64,000 bases of DNA. Source: Candidatus Thorarchaeota archaeon. Lineage in GTDB: Archaea > Asgardarchaeota > Thorarchaeia > Thorarchaeales > Thorarchaeaceae. Made by a program: the position numbers and the translations under genes. The notes beneath the pieces are model-generated. The model was not told the DNA's origin and made no database searches. It saw only the letters and a list, made by a program, of their open reading frames with translations. Below are positions 85 to 29,425 of the stretch, piece by piece. The number at the start of each line of letters is the position of its first letter. Positions within the stretch are counted from its first letter, which is position 1. The stretch lies in the NCBI GenBank assembly GCA_046482545.1, contig JAWOEX010000038.1:16240-80239 (forward strand), read 5' to 3'.

Positions 85-174
85 CCATTCTCTTCCTCAC
101 ACAGATGAGGGTACTCCACAATTCTTTTAACAGTCCTCTTTGCGAGAATTAAATGCACTTGGAGTATGAAAAGT

Positions 175-280
175 GGGCCGGTAGTTCAGCCTGGTAGAAT
201 GCCTCCTTGGCACTTGTCAAGCGTTAGCTTGATCTCCAAAATGGAGGAGGTCACGTGTTCAAATCACGTCCGGTCCACCA
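175..280 (+). tRNA. tRNA-Ala(GGC) with a 29-nt intron at position 37/38 (213-241); CCA encoded
   Basis: Acceptor stem GGGCCGG/CCGGTCC with G3:U70; anticodon stem CCTCC/GGAGG; GGC at 209-211; T-loop GTTCAAATC; ACCA end. Confidence 0.95.
213..241 (+). other. tRNA intron with relaxed BHB motif
   Basis: Central helix TTGG(207-210)/CCAA(236-239); bulges CA|C and AA|T; internal hairpin TCAAGC-GTTA-GCTTGA. Confidence 0.9.
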
Positions 281-361
281 TTAAAAACTTGACAATTTCC
301 GTTTCTTCTTAATCCATCAAAGCTGACAAGACTATTAATTTACAAATCTCAAGGGCAATTC

Positions 362-565
362 ATGCCGATTGTTGAAATCAAGTTATGGACAGGCGTATCT
401 AAAGATGCTGTAGAACAAATCATCCCCGGAGTTACGAAAGTTTTCGTTGGGTTAGGAATTCCGGAACGAGCGGTCGAAGTTATTGTTCAAGAAGTCCCAA
501 AGACCCACTGGGGGATTGAGGGAAAACCAGCTTCAAAAGTGATGGGTGACGAGAAGCCACCCTAA
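362..565 (+). CDS. 4-oxalocrotonate tautomerase family protein
   Basis: N-terminal catalytic Pro (MPIVEI), 67 aa, C-terminal EVPKTHWGIEG motif. Confidence 0.85.
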   Translation: MPIVEIKLWTGVSKDAVEQIIPGVTKVFVGLGIPERAVEVIVQEVPKTHWGIEGKPASKVMGDEKPP

Positions 566-878
566 GGGCTTCTTGGATAAACTATCAAATCCATACACTT
601 TGAGTAAATTATTATCTAGAGAATTGAGGGGTCGAAGTGGAGGATTTCCGTAAGATTTCAGATAAACCGATGGACACGTCGAAGACAGTTCATCTGGCTT
701 CTCTCTTCTCCAACAGTAGGGACTTTTATTGCGCCTGCTTCAAGCAGTTCACTCAATTGTAAGAAATGTCTCATAGAAATACATTGCAGCTATATGAATC
801 TATCATCGAACATTCTATTTACTCCTCTTATGTAGGATTCATATACATATCACCTCGGATACTTCTACAGTGATTATG

Positions 879-2166
879 ATGGTTGATTACAAGGTGAAAG
901 ACATGGATTTGGCCGAGGAAGGCAGGTCTCTGATTGAGTATGCAGAGACGCATATGCCGGTTCTCATGCATTTGCGAGAGAAATACTCAGAGTCGAAACC
1001 GCTCGAAGGAATGAGAATCTCTGGCTGTCTTCATGTAACAAAGGAGACCGCCGTGCTTGTAGAGACACTACGGGCGGTCGGTGCTCAAGTAGCATGGTCT
1101 GGTTGCAACCCTTTGTCAACGAATGACAAGGTAGCAGCAGCTCTTGCGGCAAATGACGTCCCCGTTTTTGCGTGGCACGGGCTTGATACCGAGGACTACT
1201 ACTGGTGTATCGAACAAACACTCAAGATTGAGCCGACAATGACATTGGATGATGGAGCAGATTTGATTTTTACACTGCATAACAAGCATACAGAACTCAT
1301 TGAGAATCTGTATGGCGGCGCAGAAGAAACAACTACTGGAGTCATCCGTGTCAGAGCAATGGCAAAAGATGGTGCACTCAAGTATCCAATCATGGCAGTC
1401 AACGATGCTGATACCAAGCACCTGTTTGACAATGTATACGGTACTGGACAAAGCTCCTTTGATGGAGTGTTGCGAGCATCTGCCATTCTGATAGCCGGGA
1501 AGACTGCTGTGATTGGTGGCTATGGGTACTGTGGACGAGGTCTTGCAACCCGAGCTGATGGTCTTGGGGCAAATGTCATTGTTACAGAAGTGGATCCGGT
1601 GAGAGCACTCAAGGCGCGCATGGACGGGTTCAGAGTGATGCCAATGATTGACGCAGCCCCTGAGGGGGATTTGTTCATCACAGCAACGGGCATGCGAGAT
1701 GTCATCACTAAGGAGCATATGGAAGTGATGAAAGATGGAGCAATCCTCGGAAATGCCGGTCATTATGATGTCGAGGTCAACAAGAATCATCTTGAGGACC
1801 TAGCTAAGACCAAGGAAAGGGTAAGACACGCACTTGATGCATACAGACTCAAAGATGGACGTACGATCTATCTGCTCGGTGATGGACGGCTGGTTAATTT
1901 GGTCGCTGCAGAAGGACATCCTAGTGAGAAGCTGGCATTTGTTGCCGCTTCCTAGAAAGGTCATGGACCTGTCCTTTGCAGCCCAGCTTAACGCAATGCT
2001 ATGGTTGAAAGAGCGTGGTAAGAATCTGGAACCGGATGTCTATGAATTTCCCAAGGAACTGGATCGACAGACTGCGAGACAGAAGCTGGAAACCATGGGC
2101 ATTGACATTGACACACTCAATGCTAAACAGCAAGAATATGCCACTTCATATGCAGAAGGAACATGA
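879..2166 (+). CDS. ahcY: S-adenosylhomocysteine hydrolase (418 aa after removing the 31-nt intron at 1927-1957)
   Basis: Motifs GCLHVT, CNPLST, LDDGAD, EETTTG, KHLFDNVYGTGQS, GYGYCGRG; spliced join gives EGHPSEVMDLSFA; archaeal-type C-terminus ending EGT. ORFs 870..1955 and 1834..2166 carry the two exons. Confidence 0.93.
1927..1957 (+). other. Putative BHB-type mRNA intron in ahcY (AGAAGCTGGCATTTGTTGCCGCTTCCTAGAA)
   Basis: Central 4-bp helix CTAG(1921-24)/CTAG(1952-55); 3-nt bulges TG|A and AA|A; flanking helices ATC/GGT and GAAGC/GCTTC; removal restores frame and conserved motif. Confidence 0.88.
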
Positions 2167-2173
2167 AAAAGGA

Positions 2174-2194
2174 CGGACAAATAGCTTCTGTCCG
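2174..2194 (+). terminator. Possible terminator hairpin after ahcY
   Basis: CGGACA...TGTCCG inverted repeat just after the stop codon. Confidence 0.35.
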
Positions 2195-2271
2195 CTTGTA
2201 TGTTGGAAGATGGGCAATTGCATCCAGCTGTAATTCTTTCATCCATCTGATAGAAGGAGAGGCATCATGCA

Positions 2272-2832
2272 TTGAGCAAGAAATTACTTTTCCTACGACA
2301 TTCTGAGTCTGAACTGGATTTTAGCATCCCAGCGAGTCAATGGGGTCTTAGTAGGAGGGGTAGACGCCAAGCCAAGGAGCTGGCTCTATCGGGCTCATTC
2401 GATGATGTCGAGTACGTAATCACTTCAGAAGAAAAGAAGGCGCTTCAAACGGCTACACCGATTGCAGAACGAAATTCTCTCACTATCTACGAAATGTCGG
2501 AATTCAACGAACTCAATCGGGATGTAGCGACACCAGTAACGATAGCTGAGTATGAGGCTGCCGTAAAGCGAGCGTTGGAACATCCTCATCAAAACATTCA
2601 CGGTTGGGAACGGGCCTCAAAAGCACTGAAGCGCTTTACACGAGGTGTACATATTACAAAAAGCGGCGATGGCGAGAGAATCTTGGTTGTATCTCATGGG
2701 ATTGTGCTTACTCTCTATTTTGGCCTATTGACCAATGAGATGGATAATCTCTACAAACGCTGGAAGAAGCTGGGTTTCGATGATTGGGGGATAGTAAAAA
2801 ATGAAAAAGTAGTGAAAGACATTATTCACTAG
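2272..2832 (+). CDS. Histidine phosphatase (phosphoglycerate mutase-like) family protein
   Basis: FLRHSES (RHG variant), ITSEEKKALQTA, FNEL, VVSHG. Confidence 0.8.
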   Translation: MSKKLLFLRHSESELDFSIPASQWGLSRRGRRQAKELALSGSFDDVEYVITSEEKKALQTATPIAERNSLTIYEMSEFNELNRDVATPVTIAEYEAAVKRALEHPHQNIHGWERASKALKRFTRGVHITKSGDGERILVVSHGIVLTLYFGLLTNEMDNLYKRWKKLGFDDWGIVKNEKVVKDIIH

Positions 2833-2903
2833 GAGAGATAGACTCTACTTTTCCAAATAATCTACGCTCAGATTGCTGGTTACTTTACGATTCTCTCCTC
2901 CGA

Positions 2904-24626: not shown

Positions 24627-27488
24627 CTAAATCCAATCGCCTGTTTCTAGTTTAGCCGGAAGATACTCATCAGTGAGGTAGTTAAACCCATGACTTGCGA
24701 ACGCCTGTATCTCCGCTTTTTCTTTCATCTTGAGCATGAGCTCTAAGTCCCGTACCCATTCCTTGTTCTTCTGTACGAATGGCTCGTCCAACATCTGTTT
24801 AACCCTCCGAATGTCTGAGTCCTCCATCCTGATACGCACCGCTTTCGGGATTTTGTATTCCTCAAGATCACGGCTCAATACACCCAGAAGTTTCAATTCA
24901 GGAGTGGCAATGAATGGCGATTCATAGCTTAACCGTTTGCTGCCCCGCAAGAAGATGGAATATATGTAATGCCCATACGGGTCAGAGTCGACAAGTGCAA
25001 ATGCTGGAATCTGCAATTCCCTCACCAGCATCTTGAGAAAGGCACGTGTGGCTATGTCACCAGTACCCTTCCCAGTTAGAATGATACAGGGTTGACGCTC
25101 CCAATACTTAGCCTCAGCTAATCTCATCATGGCTGCGTCTTTCTCTGAGAGGATGATAAACTCAGCATCACTTTCCACAATTTCAACCTGATCAAGAAAA
25201 GGCGTAATAGACCAGCCACCAGTACCCATTTTGGTGAGATCCAGACGGTCACCACCATCTCGCAGCACAACTCGGCCCATAGCGGAACCTCGCGCTGAAG
25301 CAACAACGTGAATACTATCACGTGTAGTCTGGAGCATGGAAGCTACATCTTCAATTGTTTTGTCGCTATATTTCTGATCTCTGAAAAGGTTCACGTCACT
25401 GTAGAAGACTTCTCGTTTCGTAGCGTGGAGATTATCACGCAGCAACTCATATACGATTTCCATGACTCTAGCAGTTCGAGTTGCATCAAGAACTGATCCG
25501 AGTGAATGATAGGGCCGTGAAATCTTTCGGGTTCCTAGAAGAAGTAAATCGCGAACTTGATCCCAAACGATATTGTCGGCTGAACGGCTAGGAATCTCAA
25601 AGACTGGACGCCCGGTCATCATAGCTTCATCTAGGACGGTTCGAACTTCATCGACAAGCCGTTCGCTTGTTTCCTCAGCGCTCAGCGCCACGACTTCCAT
25701 GGTTTCACGAGTACGAGCAGATTCCTCTTTCTCTTTCTCCTTGGCCGCCTCCATCATCTGCTCGGTCTCTTTCCAAGACTCTACCATCTGATGGCGGAAC
25801 TGTCTTACTGAATCAGGTACGTCGAGACCAGAATCCTTCCGTATAATCGATTCTCTTGCCTCTTTCAGTTTCTTTACAGAAGTACTGACAATCGGGATGC
25901 GCGGGCCAGAAACAATCTTCATTCCCTGTTCTTCGACCACTCCACCGCGATCCACAACCTCCTTGGCAGTTTCGATGAGTTTCTTACCGCCTTTTTCTCC
26001 GATTCCATCTACATCCTTAGCCAAATCAGAAGGAGATGCTGACACTATTTTCGGTATAGTATCATAACCCTTGGAAATGAGATTTTTTGCGGTCTTCGGG
26101 CCAATGCCTTCAAGGTCAGTAAGTTCGACATCATCCAAATCAGCAGCATCGGCTCGTTCAAAAGCCACAGTTTGCGAAGCTAACTGGACCACCTTGTGGG
26201 CGCTCTTCTTTCCTATGCCTTCCACCTCATCGGCAAGTTCATCGGGGTCACAAGCTGCTAGTTCTGCTATTGAGCTATAGCCTGCTTTTTTGAGAAGATC
26301 TGCCGTCTTCGCACCAACGCCTTGCAAATCTACGAGGTCATAATCAGAGACTATCTCCTTTGCCTGTCTTAACCTAAAGAGCTTCTGAGCAGATGCCACT
26401 ATATTCTGAGCACCCTTATCTCCTACACCTGTAACGAACCGAGTGAGAGTCGTTGAATCTGATGTAGCAATCTTCTCGAGAGTAGCGTATCCAGCCGCTC
26501 TGAGATTCTCAGCAGTTTTCGCGCCCACACCATCTAATTGAATCAAATCAAAGGTTTCCTTGTCCTCTTCGGAGGGTCTGGGTCCTTTCGTCTTTGCAAT
26601 TTTCTTTGCTGAGGCAACTATGTTTTCGGCACCTTTCCTTCCTACACCATCTACTGAATCTGACAATTCGTTCGGCATGGTATCGGCAATCTTGAATACG
26701 GTATCGTAACCTGCTTCTCTGAGACTTTCTGCTGTTTTTGCTCCCACCCCATCAAGTTCTGTCAATTCATCGCCAGCAGCTTCTTTCTTGGCGGATTTTG
26801 GTTTCTTCTCTCGCCATAGTTTCCTTGCAGATTTCAACATCTGTTCAGATCCCTTCTTACCCACACCAGGAACAGAAACCAGTTCCTCTGCTTCTGCTTT
26901 TGCGACAGATTCTATGGAATCAAAACCAGATTCTATTAGGTTCTCCGCGGTCTTTCCCCCTACAGCGTCTAGCTGCTTTAGTTCAGCTATCTCTTTCTTG
27001 GGTTTTGGCTTCATCTTCCGCCAGAGTTTTTTTGCTGCTGCCAGAATCTGCTTTGCACCCTTTCTACCCACACCAGAAACAGATGCCAGCTCTTTCTCGT
27101 TTGCATTCGCAATGGCCTCTATTGAATCATAACCAGCGTTTATGAGATTCTCTGCAGTCTTTCCCCCCACACCATCAAGTTTCGATAGTTTGTTTATTTT
27201 TTCCATAGGTTTTGGCCTAATCTCATCCCAGAGCTTTGTTGCCGCTGCCAGAATTTGTTTTGCCCCTTTCTTGCCCACACCAGGAACAGAGGCAAGCTCT
27301 TTTTTATTTGCATTTGCAATGGCCTCTATTGAATCAAAACCAGATTCTATTAAGTTCGCCGCGGTTTTTTTTCCCACACCATCAAGTTCTGTCAGTGACA
27401 CCGTTGAATTCCTTCCGTTCTGTTCAGTCTTTGGTTTATCATGTTCTAGTAATGTTGATTGACGAAACTCAGGTCTCCCTGGCGTCAT
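24627..27488 (-). CDS. top6A: DNA topoisomerase VI subunit A with seven N-terminal (HhH)2 repeats
   Basis: 5Y-CAP TKREVFY; TOPRIM SEKDA and VDSDPYG; KAEIQA; start overlaps top6B stop (TGATG). Confidence 0.9.
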   Translation of the reverse strand: MTPGRPEFRQSTLLEHDKPKTEQNGRNSTVSLTELDGVGKKTAANLIESGFDSIEAIANANKKELASVPGVGKKGAKQILAAATKLWDEIRPKPMEKINKLSKLDGVGGKTAENLINAGYDSIEAIANANEKELASVSGVGRKGAKQILAAAKKLWRKMKPKPKKEIAELKQLDAVGGKTAENLIESGFDSIESVAKAEAEELVSVPGVGKKGSEQMLKSARKLWREKKPKSAKKEAAGDELTELDGVGAKTAESLREAGYDTVFKIADTMPNELSDSVDGVGRKGAENIVASAKKIAKTKGPRPSEEDKETFDLIQLDGVGAKTAENLRAAGYATLEKIATSDSTTLTRFVTGVGDKGAQNIVASAQKLFRLRQAKEIVSDYDLVDLQGVGAKTADLLKKAGYSSIAELAACDPDELADEVEGIGKKSAHKVVQLASQTVAFERADAADLDDVELTDLEGIGPKTAKNLISKGYDTIPKIVSASPSDLAKDVDGIGEKGGKKLIETAKEVVDRGGVVEEQGMKIVSGPRIPIVSTSVKKLKEARESIIRKDSGLDVPDSVRQFRHQMVESWKETEQMMEAAKEKEKEESARTRETMEVVALSAEETSERLVDEVRTVLDEAMMTGRPVFEIPSRSADNIVWDQVRDLLLLGTRKISRPYHSLGSVLDATRTARVMEIVYELLRDNLHATKREVFYSDVNLFRDQKYSDKTIEDVASMLQTTRDSIHVVASARGSAMGRVVLRDGGDRLDLTKMGTGGWSITPFLDQVEIVESDAEFIILSEKDAAMMRLAEAKYWERQPCIILTGKGTGDIATRAFLKMLVRELQIPAFALVDSDPYGHYIYSIFLRGSKRLSYESPFIATPELKLLGVLSRDLEEYKIPKAVRIRMEDSDIRRVKQMLDEPFVQKNKEWVRDLELMLKMKEKAEIQAFASHGFNYLTDEYLPAKLETGDWI
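25958..27395 (-). repeat. Seven tandem ~69-75 aa (HhH)2 coding repeats; the first three have a 207-nt period
   Basis: LxxLdGVGxKTAxxL recurs 7 times; ACCATCAAGT at 27171 and 27378. Confidence 0.9.
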
Positions 27489-29425
27489 CAGTCACCACCT
27501 GTGGCAACATCTGCTACCAAATCGCTACCTTCGGTATCCGTTTTCGTATCCTCTTCTTCCTGCCCCTTATCGAAACCAGAAATTGAATCTCTGATTCGTT
27601 GAGCTATTGCTTCAGCATCATACTTCTGCTTACCCTCTGCGTCATTAACGATGCTCACTAAGCTATCCGCAAACTGGTCAGCATACATAGCGAGTACACC
27701 TGCTCGCTTTGCTTTCCTCCTTGCCTTCTCTTTCTTAGACATGTAACGCCTGAAGGATCTGCCGGCTTCTTCAAGTGCTAGCTTGATTTCCTTCAAGAGA
27801 ACTTCATCTTCAGCCAAAGCCTGTTTGCTTTGACCTTTGAACATCACGTGCACGTAGGCACCACAGACATGGATGAATACCAACAATGGGCCCTTTGGCA
27901 GGCCGTTGTCAAAGGTATCAAGTTTGTAGTTCTTCCAGTTTACCATTGCAGTTGCTTTCCAAGTTGCACAATCGCTGTTATCACGCATCTTGGGCACACG
28001 GTTGACAAATCGCTTCAATACCACGGGCGAAGACGACGCGGGTTTGATGTCTCCACCGTAAGCTATGCAGACCTCGACCGAGAAAGAAAGCCCCTTGCCA
28101 GACGTAGGACTTCGTGTAACAGCTGTAATGAAGTCAGGATTGTATGCCATCTGTACAGTTTGTTCAAAAACCTCTTCGCCCACAGGTACTACAGTATCCG
28201 TAGGTGGTGCGTAGTAATCTTCTGACGAAAATGATCTGTAGAGAAGTTCAACCTGCAATTTCGATAAATTGGACGGATCTTGACCAGAATCAATGATCTT
28301 GATACCCCGGTCTTCCAAAGCATCATTGGTATTCGAGATGATGTCTTTTGCCTTGCTATTGCTCATTCTCACGAATGCATTCGTCAAAAATGATTGAACA
28401 GTCCCATGCTCGGTCTCTCTGAGAATATCCTGAAATTCTCCAATGCGGATGCTGGCAGGGTGAGGTTTCGCATACTTGGGTTCTTCCGGAAATGTCTTGA
28501 CTCGACGAGGGTAAATATGAAGGTCACCGTAAGGATCGATGAATACAATCGTAACATGAGAATTCAGGAGAGAAGCCATTTCTGCATACTCGTCAGCATA
28601 GCCCCTACGATACTGAATATTCAGATAGTGCAGCTTGATATATGTACCCTGTTTGAACTGCAAATCCATCTCCTTGGGACCCGCAACGTAGTCTTTCGTA
28701 TTCGCTGTCGTTGTATAATAATCAGCAACTATTGCTTTATCTGCCTTGTAATTCTTCGATATTGTAAAAATCGGTTTTCCCGTTGTATTCTGAGCATCAC
28801 TAAATGCAGAAGGAGCACCAAATCCTTGGCTACCACGAGTTTGTCTCAACTTCTCACTCTTGCTTGATGCAAGATAAATCCCGAATTTTTCGAGGTCGGA
28901 AGGCACCATACCGATGCCATTGTCAAAAATGGTGAACTCGTATACCTTGAACCCATCTTCGTCATCAATTGGGATTAGGTTGGGCATCTGGATCTCTTCA
29001 ATCTGTATGACGACTAGAGGTTCTTGTTTATCAATCAGCTTCTTGAAAGGTTTGATAAAAGCCTTAAAATCTTTAATCCGTTTCTCCAAGTCCTCCTTAG
29101 GATAAGGTGGGATATTGACTTTCTTTCCCGCAAGAGCCTTCTTCTCTAATTCTTTGCTCTTAGATATGGTATCGACAAGTTCGGATTCTAGGCTTTCCAC
29201 TACTTCTGCAACAAGTTCGGGATTGAGCTGGTCACTGAGTTCCGGTTTCTTTTTCGCTCGCCACCACCAGCTCTCAATGGCATCTATTGAGTTATCAAGA
29301 AACTCGATTGCATACTGTGTATGCTTATTGAGCCCAGTTTCGAAGCCAACTAATTGGGTCCGTTTGCGCATGAACTTAGCTATAGTTCCTTGCTTGATGT
29401 CACCAGTTTCTTGGCCACTTGCCAT
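27488..29425 (-). CDS. top6B: DNA topoisomerase VI subunit B
   Basis: GHKL motifs EFLDNSIDA, DNGIG, QTRGSQGFG; KPHP; RFVNRVP; WKNY. Confidence 0.92.
   Translation of the reverse strand: MASGQETGDIKQGTIAKFMRKRTQLVGFETGLNKHTQYAIEFLDNSIDAIESWWWRAKKKPELSDQLNPELVAEVVESLESELVDTISKSKELEKKALAGKKVNIPPYPKEDLEKRIKDFKAFIKPFKKLIDKQEPLVVIQIEEIQMPNLIPIDDEDGFKVYEFTIFDNGIGMVPSDLEKFGIYLASSKSEKLRQTRGSQGFGAPSAFSDAQNTTGKPIFTISKNYKADKAIVADYYTTTANTKDYVAGPKEMDLQFKQGTYIKLHYLNIQYRRGYADEYAEMASLLNSHVTIVFIDPYGDLHIYPRRVKTFPEEPKYAKPHPASIRIGEFQDILRETEHGTVQSFLTNAFVRMSNSKAKDIISNTNDALEDRGIKIIDSGQDPSNLSKLQVELLYRSFSSEDYYAPPTDTVVPVGEEVFEQTVQMAYNPDFITAVTRSPTSGKGLSFSVEVCIAYGGDIKPASSSPVVLKRFVNRVPKMRDNSDCATWKATAMVNWKNYKLDTFDNGLPKGPLLVFIHVCGAYVHVMFKGQSKQALAEDEVLLKEIKLALEEAGRSFRRYMSKKEKARRKAKRAGVLAMYADQFADSLVSIVNDAEGKQKYDAEAIAQRIRDSISGFDKGQEEEDTKTDTEGSDLVADVATGGD

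Follow-up and report, generated by a model that had tools for sequence, protein, structure and literature searches.

The sole ahcY gene of a 3.05-Mb, 98.9% complete Thorarchaeota-family genome (G000) is broken by a 31-nt insert at positions 1927-1957 of the window, by which we mean the whole 64,000-nucleotide stretch of DNA that was analysed, and this insert is very likely a real archaeal bulge-helix-bulge (BHB) intron in the ahcY pre-mRNA, of the type removed from archaeal tRNAs (probability about 0.88). Its structure, the conservation of its site, the covariation of its helices, an intact second exon under selection, and the presence of the enzymes are shown here; its removal in vivo and its cleavage by EndA are inferred. 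On every feature that could be tested, apart from removal in vivo and the outer helix, the insert groups with archaeal BHB introns.

The interrupted ahcY gene and its RNA structure

The gene encodes AhcY, an enzyme central to the methyl cycle, and the closest named relatives of this ahcY are found in Thorarchaeota. On the plus strand, the frame of the first exon opens with an ATG at 879 and runs to an in-frame stop, TAG, at 1953-55, and the other 68 codons lie in a different frame that extends to 2166. An earlier note had claimed that a 31-nt insert splits ahcY at the conserved GHPxxVM motif, and this held: taking out 1927-1957 gives ...AEGHPSEVMDLSF..., brings back the motif GHPSEVMDLSF, and yields a protein of 418 aa, encoded from the ATG at 879 to a TGA at 2164-66. 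Exon 1 (879-1926, plus strand, starting at the ATG and ending on the G that opens the Glu codon of GHPS-E) corresponds to positions 1-347 of the TIGR00936 (adenosylhomocysteinase) profile, and exon 2 (1958-2166, plus strand, 68 more codons and the stop) to positions 349-416, with a full-length match across both. Exon 2 aligns to the C-terminal 68 residues of solved enzymes and covers the adenine-pocket segment and the C-terminal segment, which is described as the dimerisation domain (PMC10978960). The frame-shifting intron between the exons (1927-1957, plus strand), which contains the in-frame stop, has homologous boundaries in 23 sequences. Translation of the unspliced mRNA gives a 358-aa protein without the C-terminal domain, and an exact look-up of this truncated protein found no record.

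The insert is not an assembly error, because the same insert is present in independent genomes and in one contig from an independent RNA-library run. A profile search of G000 detected no MTA/SAH nucleosidase above the cut-off, so that no evident way around AhcY was identified. The neighbours of ahcY are a tautomerase-family gene upstream (window 362-565) and a histidine-phosphatase-family gene downstream (2272-2832), and no mobile-element gene was seen beside the intron.

Folding of the junction RNA with ViennaRNA placed the central and inner helices at probabilities of 0.93-1.0 with three sizes of folding window. The central helix (H) pairs an exon strand, CUAG at 1921-1924 (plus strand, p 0.93-0.96), in which a U-A pair changes to C-G in homologues, with an intron strand, CUAG at 1952-1955 (plus strand), which is supported by covariation and includes the stop of the unspliced frame. 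With 4 bp and a 3-nt bulge on either side, one in each strand, this helix satisfies the BHB criterion: the 5' bulge UGA lies at 1925-1927 and the 3' bulge AAA at 1956-1958 (both plus strand), with predicted cuts, by the rule of PMC2738675, at 1926/1927 and 1957/1958. The inner hairpin (h', 1928-1951, plus strand, p 0.94-1.0), composed of GAAGC/GCUUC and then GGCA/UGCC with a 5-nt loop, is supported by folding and covariation. Only 0.02% of shuffled inserts form both a 4-bp central and a 5-bp inner helix, and the fold z-score of the insert region is -2.5 to -2.9.

The outer helix (h, within 1918-1961, plus strand), in which 1918-20 would pair with 1959-61, can form its pairs in 19-21 of 21 sequences. 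In this strain, its probability is ~0 because other exon pairings win, and forcing it costs 4.1 kcal/mol. The dependable motif in this strain is therefore HBh', the relaxed form reportedly cut by hetero-oligomeric EndA (PMC2738675), and four homologues (L021, L114, L115, and L136) have the complete hBHBh' as their minimum-energy fold. The complete hBHBh' motif proposed for this junction in the earlier note thus held in part: all 16 base pairs that it listed are standard pairs at the right positions, both bulges were confirmed, and the central and inner helices are favoured; the outer helix is compatible with pairing but unfavoured in this strain.

This sequence by itself leaves the cut site ambiguous, because deletions of 1927-57, 1928-58, and 1929-59 all yield an identical mRNA. 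Its position is settled by the homologues: in L026, L111, L113, L114, L136, L150, L151, and others, the Glu codon is recovered only if the cut follows the second base of the bulge, and in introns beginning with U the boundary is unambiguous and agrees with the EndA cut rule. The cut after the second bulge base that had been proposed is compatible with the present sequence. A search of Rfam with the insert returned nothing above the gathering score and only a chance match at E 1.5. A C/D-box or K-turn reading was rejected, as the boxes are not kept across the intron copies.

Inserts at the same site in relatives

A search of relatives, the phylum, and metagenomes showed that 23 different sequences, 22-59 nt in length, are inserted at the identical ahcY nucleotide in three Asgard families, namely that of the window, f13 (G080 and G060, the latter a single contig of 2.81 Mb), and f33. 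Removal of the insert restores GHPSEVMD in all 23, and, in contigs that extend far enough, the 68-69-aa exon 2 stays open as far as the usual stop codon. Over 21 sequences, 92.9% of the helix cells were paired, with 25 double changes, a result that none of 500 shuffles reached, and slid controls gave 12-46% paired; the shuffle test takes no account of relatedness. The central helix alternates between CUAG/CUAG and CCAG/CUGG in step with the Pro codon, the third base of which covaries with the intron strand, and the Ser codon is AGY in 19 of 19 intron alleles and of mixed type in intronless alleles. A subgroup of at least nine homologous sequences carries a G-A mismatch in the last central-helix pair, and the second pair is broken in one sequence.

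The pN/pS ratio of exon 2 was 0.16 in intron-bearing alleles versus 0.18 in intronless ones; the value for exon 1 was left unused because an unaligned indel distorts it. No second ahcY was found in the intron-bearing genomes searched. Of the checks that the earlier note had suggested, the survey of related genomes was met by the recurrence of the intron with compensatory changes, and neither relaxation of exon 2 nor an intact second ahcY was found. Because the insert recurs at the same spot with compensating changes, the ahcY message almost certainly must be spliced. Two long ahcY introns, of 59 nt (L113:721-803, in G046) and 50 nt (L152:1218-1291), each contain two hairpins, and L113, with its two CAUUCG-type loops, could be a nested or duplicated intron. 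The short frames of G366 and G367 are located at contig ends and were set aside.

It could be argued that an insertion, such as one that left a transposon footprint, has turned ahcY into a pseudogene or an inactive split gene. This reading would be consistent with a direct repeat, CCTAG, at 1920-24 and 1951-55, 31 nt apart, and with the lack of an intron in close relatives, including a ~97% identical strain. However, deletion between the two repeats gives GHPRKVM and not the conserved motif, which rules out a transposon footprint; the repeat is a self-complementary helix and is missing from the CCAG/CUGG copies; and exon 2 has remained intact under purifying selection, with no second ahcY found in the intron-bearing genomes searched. 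We therefore consider inactivation very unlikely. Programmed ribosomal frameshifting or bypassing, by which ribosomes would skip the insert without RNA splicing, fits the absence of observed spliced RNA, and archaeal cbf5 introns were once confused with frameshifting (PMC2738675). Nevertheless, the insert lengths (22, 28, 31, 32, 33, 34, 50, and 59 nt) fall into all three phases and the stop is always inside, the motif is restored only if the insert, no more and no less, is taken out, and BHB geometry is what is conserved, all of which makes this explanation highly improbable.

Within the family of the window, the intron is present in 13 of the 74 genomes with an ahcY match and absent from about 61, among them both genomes of the same genus. 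Its presence on a 62-row tree requires 15 changes and is scarcely clustered (40 of 500 shuffles were as low). The ~97% identical strain, recovered from the DNA run X4, has TCG GAA instead of AGT G-intron-AG, which is not what precise loss from a spliced mRNA would leave and points to short-patch exchange. Synonymous identity among intron alleles is raised only at codons -4 to +7, and long co-transferred flanks are thereby ruled out. As part of the best explanation, we propose repeated gain or loss among Thorarchaeota through short recombination patches, gain and loss being indistinguishable. In three loci (L018:3283-3489, L034:6312-6554, and L039:4801-5013), a second copy of the ahcY 3' end lies 0.5-2 kb downstream of an intronless ahcY and starts near the intron site (query residues 338-348 onward); these copies are possibly a trace of recombination that moved or removed the intron.

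Splicing machinery, RNA data, and the intron-encoded tail

G000 codes for RtcB and for two paralogues of EndA, in the regions of C34:51991 and C28:122373, whose lengths of 187 and 199 aa fit an alpha-beta enzyme, and by inspection one of the EndA proteins has the Tyr/His/Lys positions. Many tRNA genes of this genome have introns, including a tRNA-Ala(GGC) identified with ARAGORN at 175-280 of the window (plus strand) with its own 29-nt intron, and an EndA substrate thus exists in the genome. Several of these tRNA intron hairpins have AUU-led loops (AUUUC, AUUCA) that resemble the start of the ahcY intron loop. In the near strain of X4, the tRNA-Ala(GGC) region shows three base differences (216, 233, and 234) and a 20-nt insertion after 293. 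By the known chemistry of EndA, the two-subunit enzyme would cut the ahcY transcript after the second base of each bulge, at 1926/1927 and 1957/1958, and RtcB would ligate the exons into an mRNA coding for the full-length 418-aa AhcY.

Three metatranscriptome runs and one DNA run were compared over window positions 100-2900, and near-identical ahcY contigs were present in the RNA runs. Two RNA runs have zero coverage at the ahcY junction and are for this reason uninformative on splicing. The only RNA-library contig over the site (X3, 151 nt, 1819-1969, depth 2.6) retains the whole insert and may represent either pre-mRNA or DNA. The proposed check for spliced reads thus produced no spliced joint in the three RNA runs, where coverage is thin and contigs drop rare forms. 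Since no spliced joint was seen and the single crossing contig is unspliced, splicing is inferred and not shown; EndA/RtcB-type mRNA splicing in an Asgard archaeon, as the earlier note had it, is supported by comparison, with splicing itself unseen in RNA.

Archaeal transcription and translation share one compartment, so unspliced ahcY mRNA will be translated. What is new here is a conserved A-F-(x)-A-A/x tail in the unspliced frame of the Thorarchaeota ahcY introns, which in this strain falls in the span from the G of the Glu codon to the stop of that frame (1926-1955, plus strand). The exon-1 frame of every Thorarchaeota intron ends in A-F-(x)-A-A/x-stop, for example EKLAFVAAS, VREAFAAS, or VYAAFAAA, one copy having Leu for Phe. 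In the tail segment, pS is 0.26-0.49 versus a pN of 0.06 in the exon-1 frame, and the pattern is reversed in the other two frames. The penultimate residue is Ala in 19 of 19 copies, encoded by all four Ala codons, and TAA, TAG, and TGA are all in use as stops. Length changes before the stop are of +9 and +18 nt (the two long introns) and one 3-nt deletion, and those after it are mostly not multiples of three. Two Ala residues within the last four occur in only 38 of 1949 long ORFs of the genome. The tail is absent from the f13 and f33 copies and from the other two ahcY sites described below. These counts come from related sequences and not from independent events, and the conserved bases double as hairpin stem. 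We lean towards selection on the tail peptide, for the Thorarchaeota copies only and with this partial confounding by hairpin pairing in mind.

The main alternative accepts the intron as real and holds that its inner sequence is kept as RNA only, as hairpin and loop or through recent lateral spread, the AFAA tail being a by-product. In support of this, the invariant GC/GC bases are stem pairs and the third-position changes are compensatory pairs, AUU-led loops also occur in tRNA introns of this genome, and the tail is missing from other families, with a patchy distribution on the tree that fits recent spread. Against it, AFAAS-stop is retained in L113, where the hairpin is a different one and 24 nt separate the stop from the end of the intron; length changes respect the frame before the stop and mostly not after it, and a stop alone needs little selection, because without it the shifted frame would end 3-35 codons on anyway; and the motif was found in no other intron-like place in 86 family genomes. 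On balance, we find the RNA-only explanation slightly less convincing than a selected peptide. A further candidate, the tail as a structural mimic of exon 2 (FAA resembling SFAAQ), was ruled out because the position of Phe is fixed relative to the stop and not to GHPS.

If the tail is selected, its function may lie in degradation. Ribosomes on the unspliced mRNA would append the intron-encoded AF(x)AA(S/A/L) tail to the truncated subunit, and the tail would route this subunit to PAN and the proteasome. C-degrons with a penultimate Ala are known, and hydrophobic tails at the C-terminus reportedly elicit a response from archaeal PAN (PMC10237035). PAN is present in the genome, and neither ClpP nor CHY-finger proteins were found there, so that PAN or a different AAA protease would be needed to read the tail. 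Degradation is only inferred, and that the tail acts as a degron remains a suggestion with the odds slightly against it. The same reserve applies to the bolder reading, which we offer tentatively, that the Thorarchaeota ahcY intron is dual-coded, serving as an EndA substrate as RNA and, when retained, as a C-terminal degron (AF-x-AA-x) that clears the truncated enzyme. A NEMF/RqcH-family gene was observed at G000 C28:234443-235744, and Ala-tailing quality control may exist in this organism.

It is also conceivable that splicing is a regulated switch, in which EndA/RtcB activity would set the ratio of active to truncated AhcY and hence methylation capacity, as IRE1 does for HAC1/XBP1. A selected tail would imply translation of unspliced mRNA, an unspliced contig exists, and alternative exon pairings compete with the outer helix; however, most relatives, including those of the same genus, lack the intron (~61 of 74), its presence requires 15 changes on the 62-row tree, and there are no condition-dependent data, so we regard a switch as unlikely. 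The likeness to XBP1/HAC1 that the earlier note had drawn is a valid analogy at the level of the chemistry, with a nuclease and a ligase in place of a spliceosome, and may extend to an intron-encoded tail, with no sign of regulation shown.

Other sites, other genes, and known systems

BHB-shaped inserts were also detected at two different ahcY sites in two other Asgard families. In G066 (family f9, L116:1052-1083), a 32-nt insert follows GHFDIE, with a central helix AUUG/CAAU and two AAA bulges, and the cut rule restores the frame and FDIEIPTKELY. In G074 (family f19, L117:690-716), a 27-nt in-frame insert contains a stop, its central helix is UGGG/CCCA with bulges AAA and AAU, and the cut rule gives TKWEFDN. 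Across the whole of G000, no other convincing mRNA intron emerged from a strict BHB scan with a coding filter, in which ahcY ranked 4th of 582. A relaxed scan gave 1110 matches, mostly operon junctions; these were not validated against the proteomes of relatives, and the result does not mean that no further introns exist. The genes cbf5, EF-1alpha, and rpoA1 are uninterrupted in G000. A mobile mini-element shared with other genes was rejected, since a pattern search of 86 genomes returned only ahcY and chance matches. A BHB-like match at window 27454-27491 is an overlap of the topoisomerase VI B and A genes and not an intron. By eye, from the translation, the ORF at 24627-27488 (minus strand) is a 953-aa topoisomerase VI A-like protein that overlaps the end of the B subunit gene and has, in its N-terminal part, a long array of LDGVG-type (helix-hairpin-helix-like) repeat motifs.

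No ahcY intron was found in the literature searched, from which subscription papers were mostly missing; the mRNA cases there are cbf5 and one Haloferax 5'UTR, and cbf5 is the only archaeal gene for which they confirm splicing within the coding sequence. Splicing being inferred, the ahcY introns, at one site in three Asgard families and at two more sites in two others, would mean that the enzymes of tRNA splicing also process mRNA in the nearest lineage to eukaryotes, and that genes bearing such introns get misread as pseudogenes. The conserved tail offers a specific candidate mechanism by which the cell could deal with the translation of unspliced mRNA.

The cbf5 pre-mRNA intron of Crenarchaeota (Desulfurococcales and Sulfolobales; Watanabe 2002, Yokobori 2009, PMC2738675) is, like that of ahcY, short, located within the coding sequence, and without a homing ORF; both form a BHB or relaxed BHB, have their cut site, a predicted one in ahcY, after the second bulge base, lie in phase 1 in a conserved codon, and show patchy gain and loss. 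In contrast to cbf5, ahcY encodes a metabolic enzyme and not an RNA-modifying one, belongs to the Asgard phylum, is interrupted at three sites in one gene, and carries the conserved tail; splicing has been demonstrated for cbf5, whereas for ahcY it is inferred only. The BHB intron of Haloferax volcanii HVO_1309 (PMC7714728) is, as inferred for that of ahcY, carried by an mRNA substrate of the archaeal splicing endonuclease, but it lies in the 5'UTR and leaves the reading frame unbroken. The BHB introns of Asgard tRNA and rRNA (PMC11291895; bioRxiv 10.64898/2026.10.13.758758) share with the ahcY intron the motif, size range, phylum, EndA type, and repeated gains. These two studies cover tRNA genes, a term search found no mRNA intron in them, and according to the preprint none has so far been demonstrated to undergo splicing in an Asgard cell (bioRxiv 10.64898/2026.10.13.758758).

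With the Ala-type C-degrons (the ssrA tag, RqcH/NEMF Ala tails, and penultimate-Ala degrons; PMC10591846, PMC10237035), the ahcY tail has in common a hydrophobic, Ala-rich end on a truncated protein, and its Ala is invariant at -2, as in penultimate-Ala degrons; unlike them, it is encoded in cis by an intron. Yeast HAC1 (PMC5114014) also contains a non-spliceosomal intron, the retention of which swaps the C-terminus for a short intron-encoded tail, in the case of unspliced HAC1 mRNA a 10-aa degron. In HAC1, however, Ire1 cuts under stress, and Duh1 and ubiquitin read the tail, whereas the ahcY intron belongs to the BHB/EndA type and its degron function and any regulation are hypothetical. If the dual-coded reading is true, this intron would give archaea an equivalent of the HAC1 fail-safe, assembled from tRNA-splicing components in the prokaryotes most closely related to eukaryotes.
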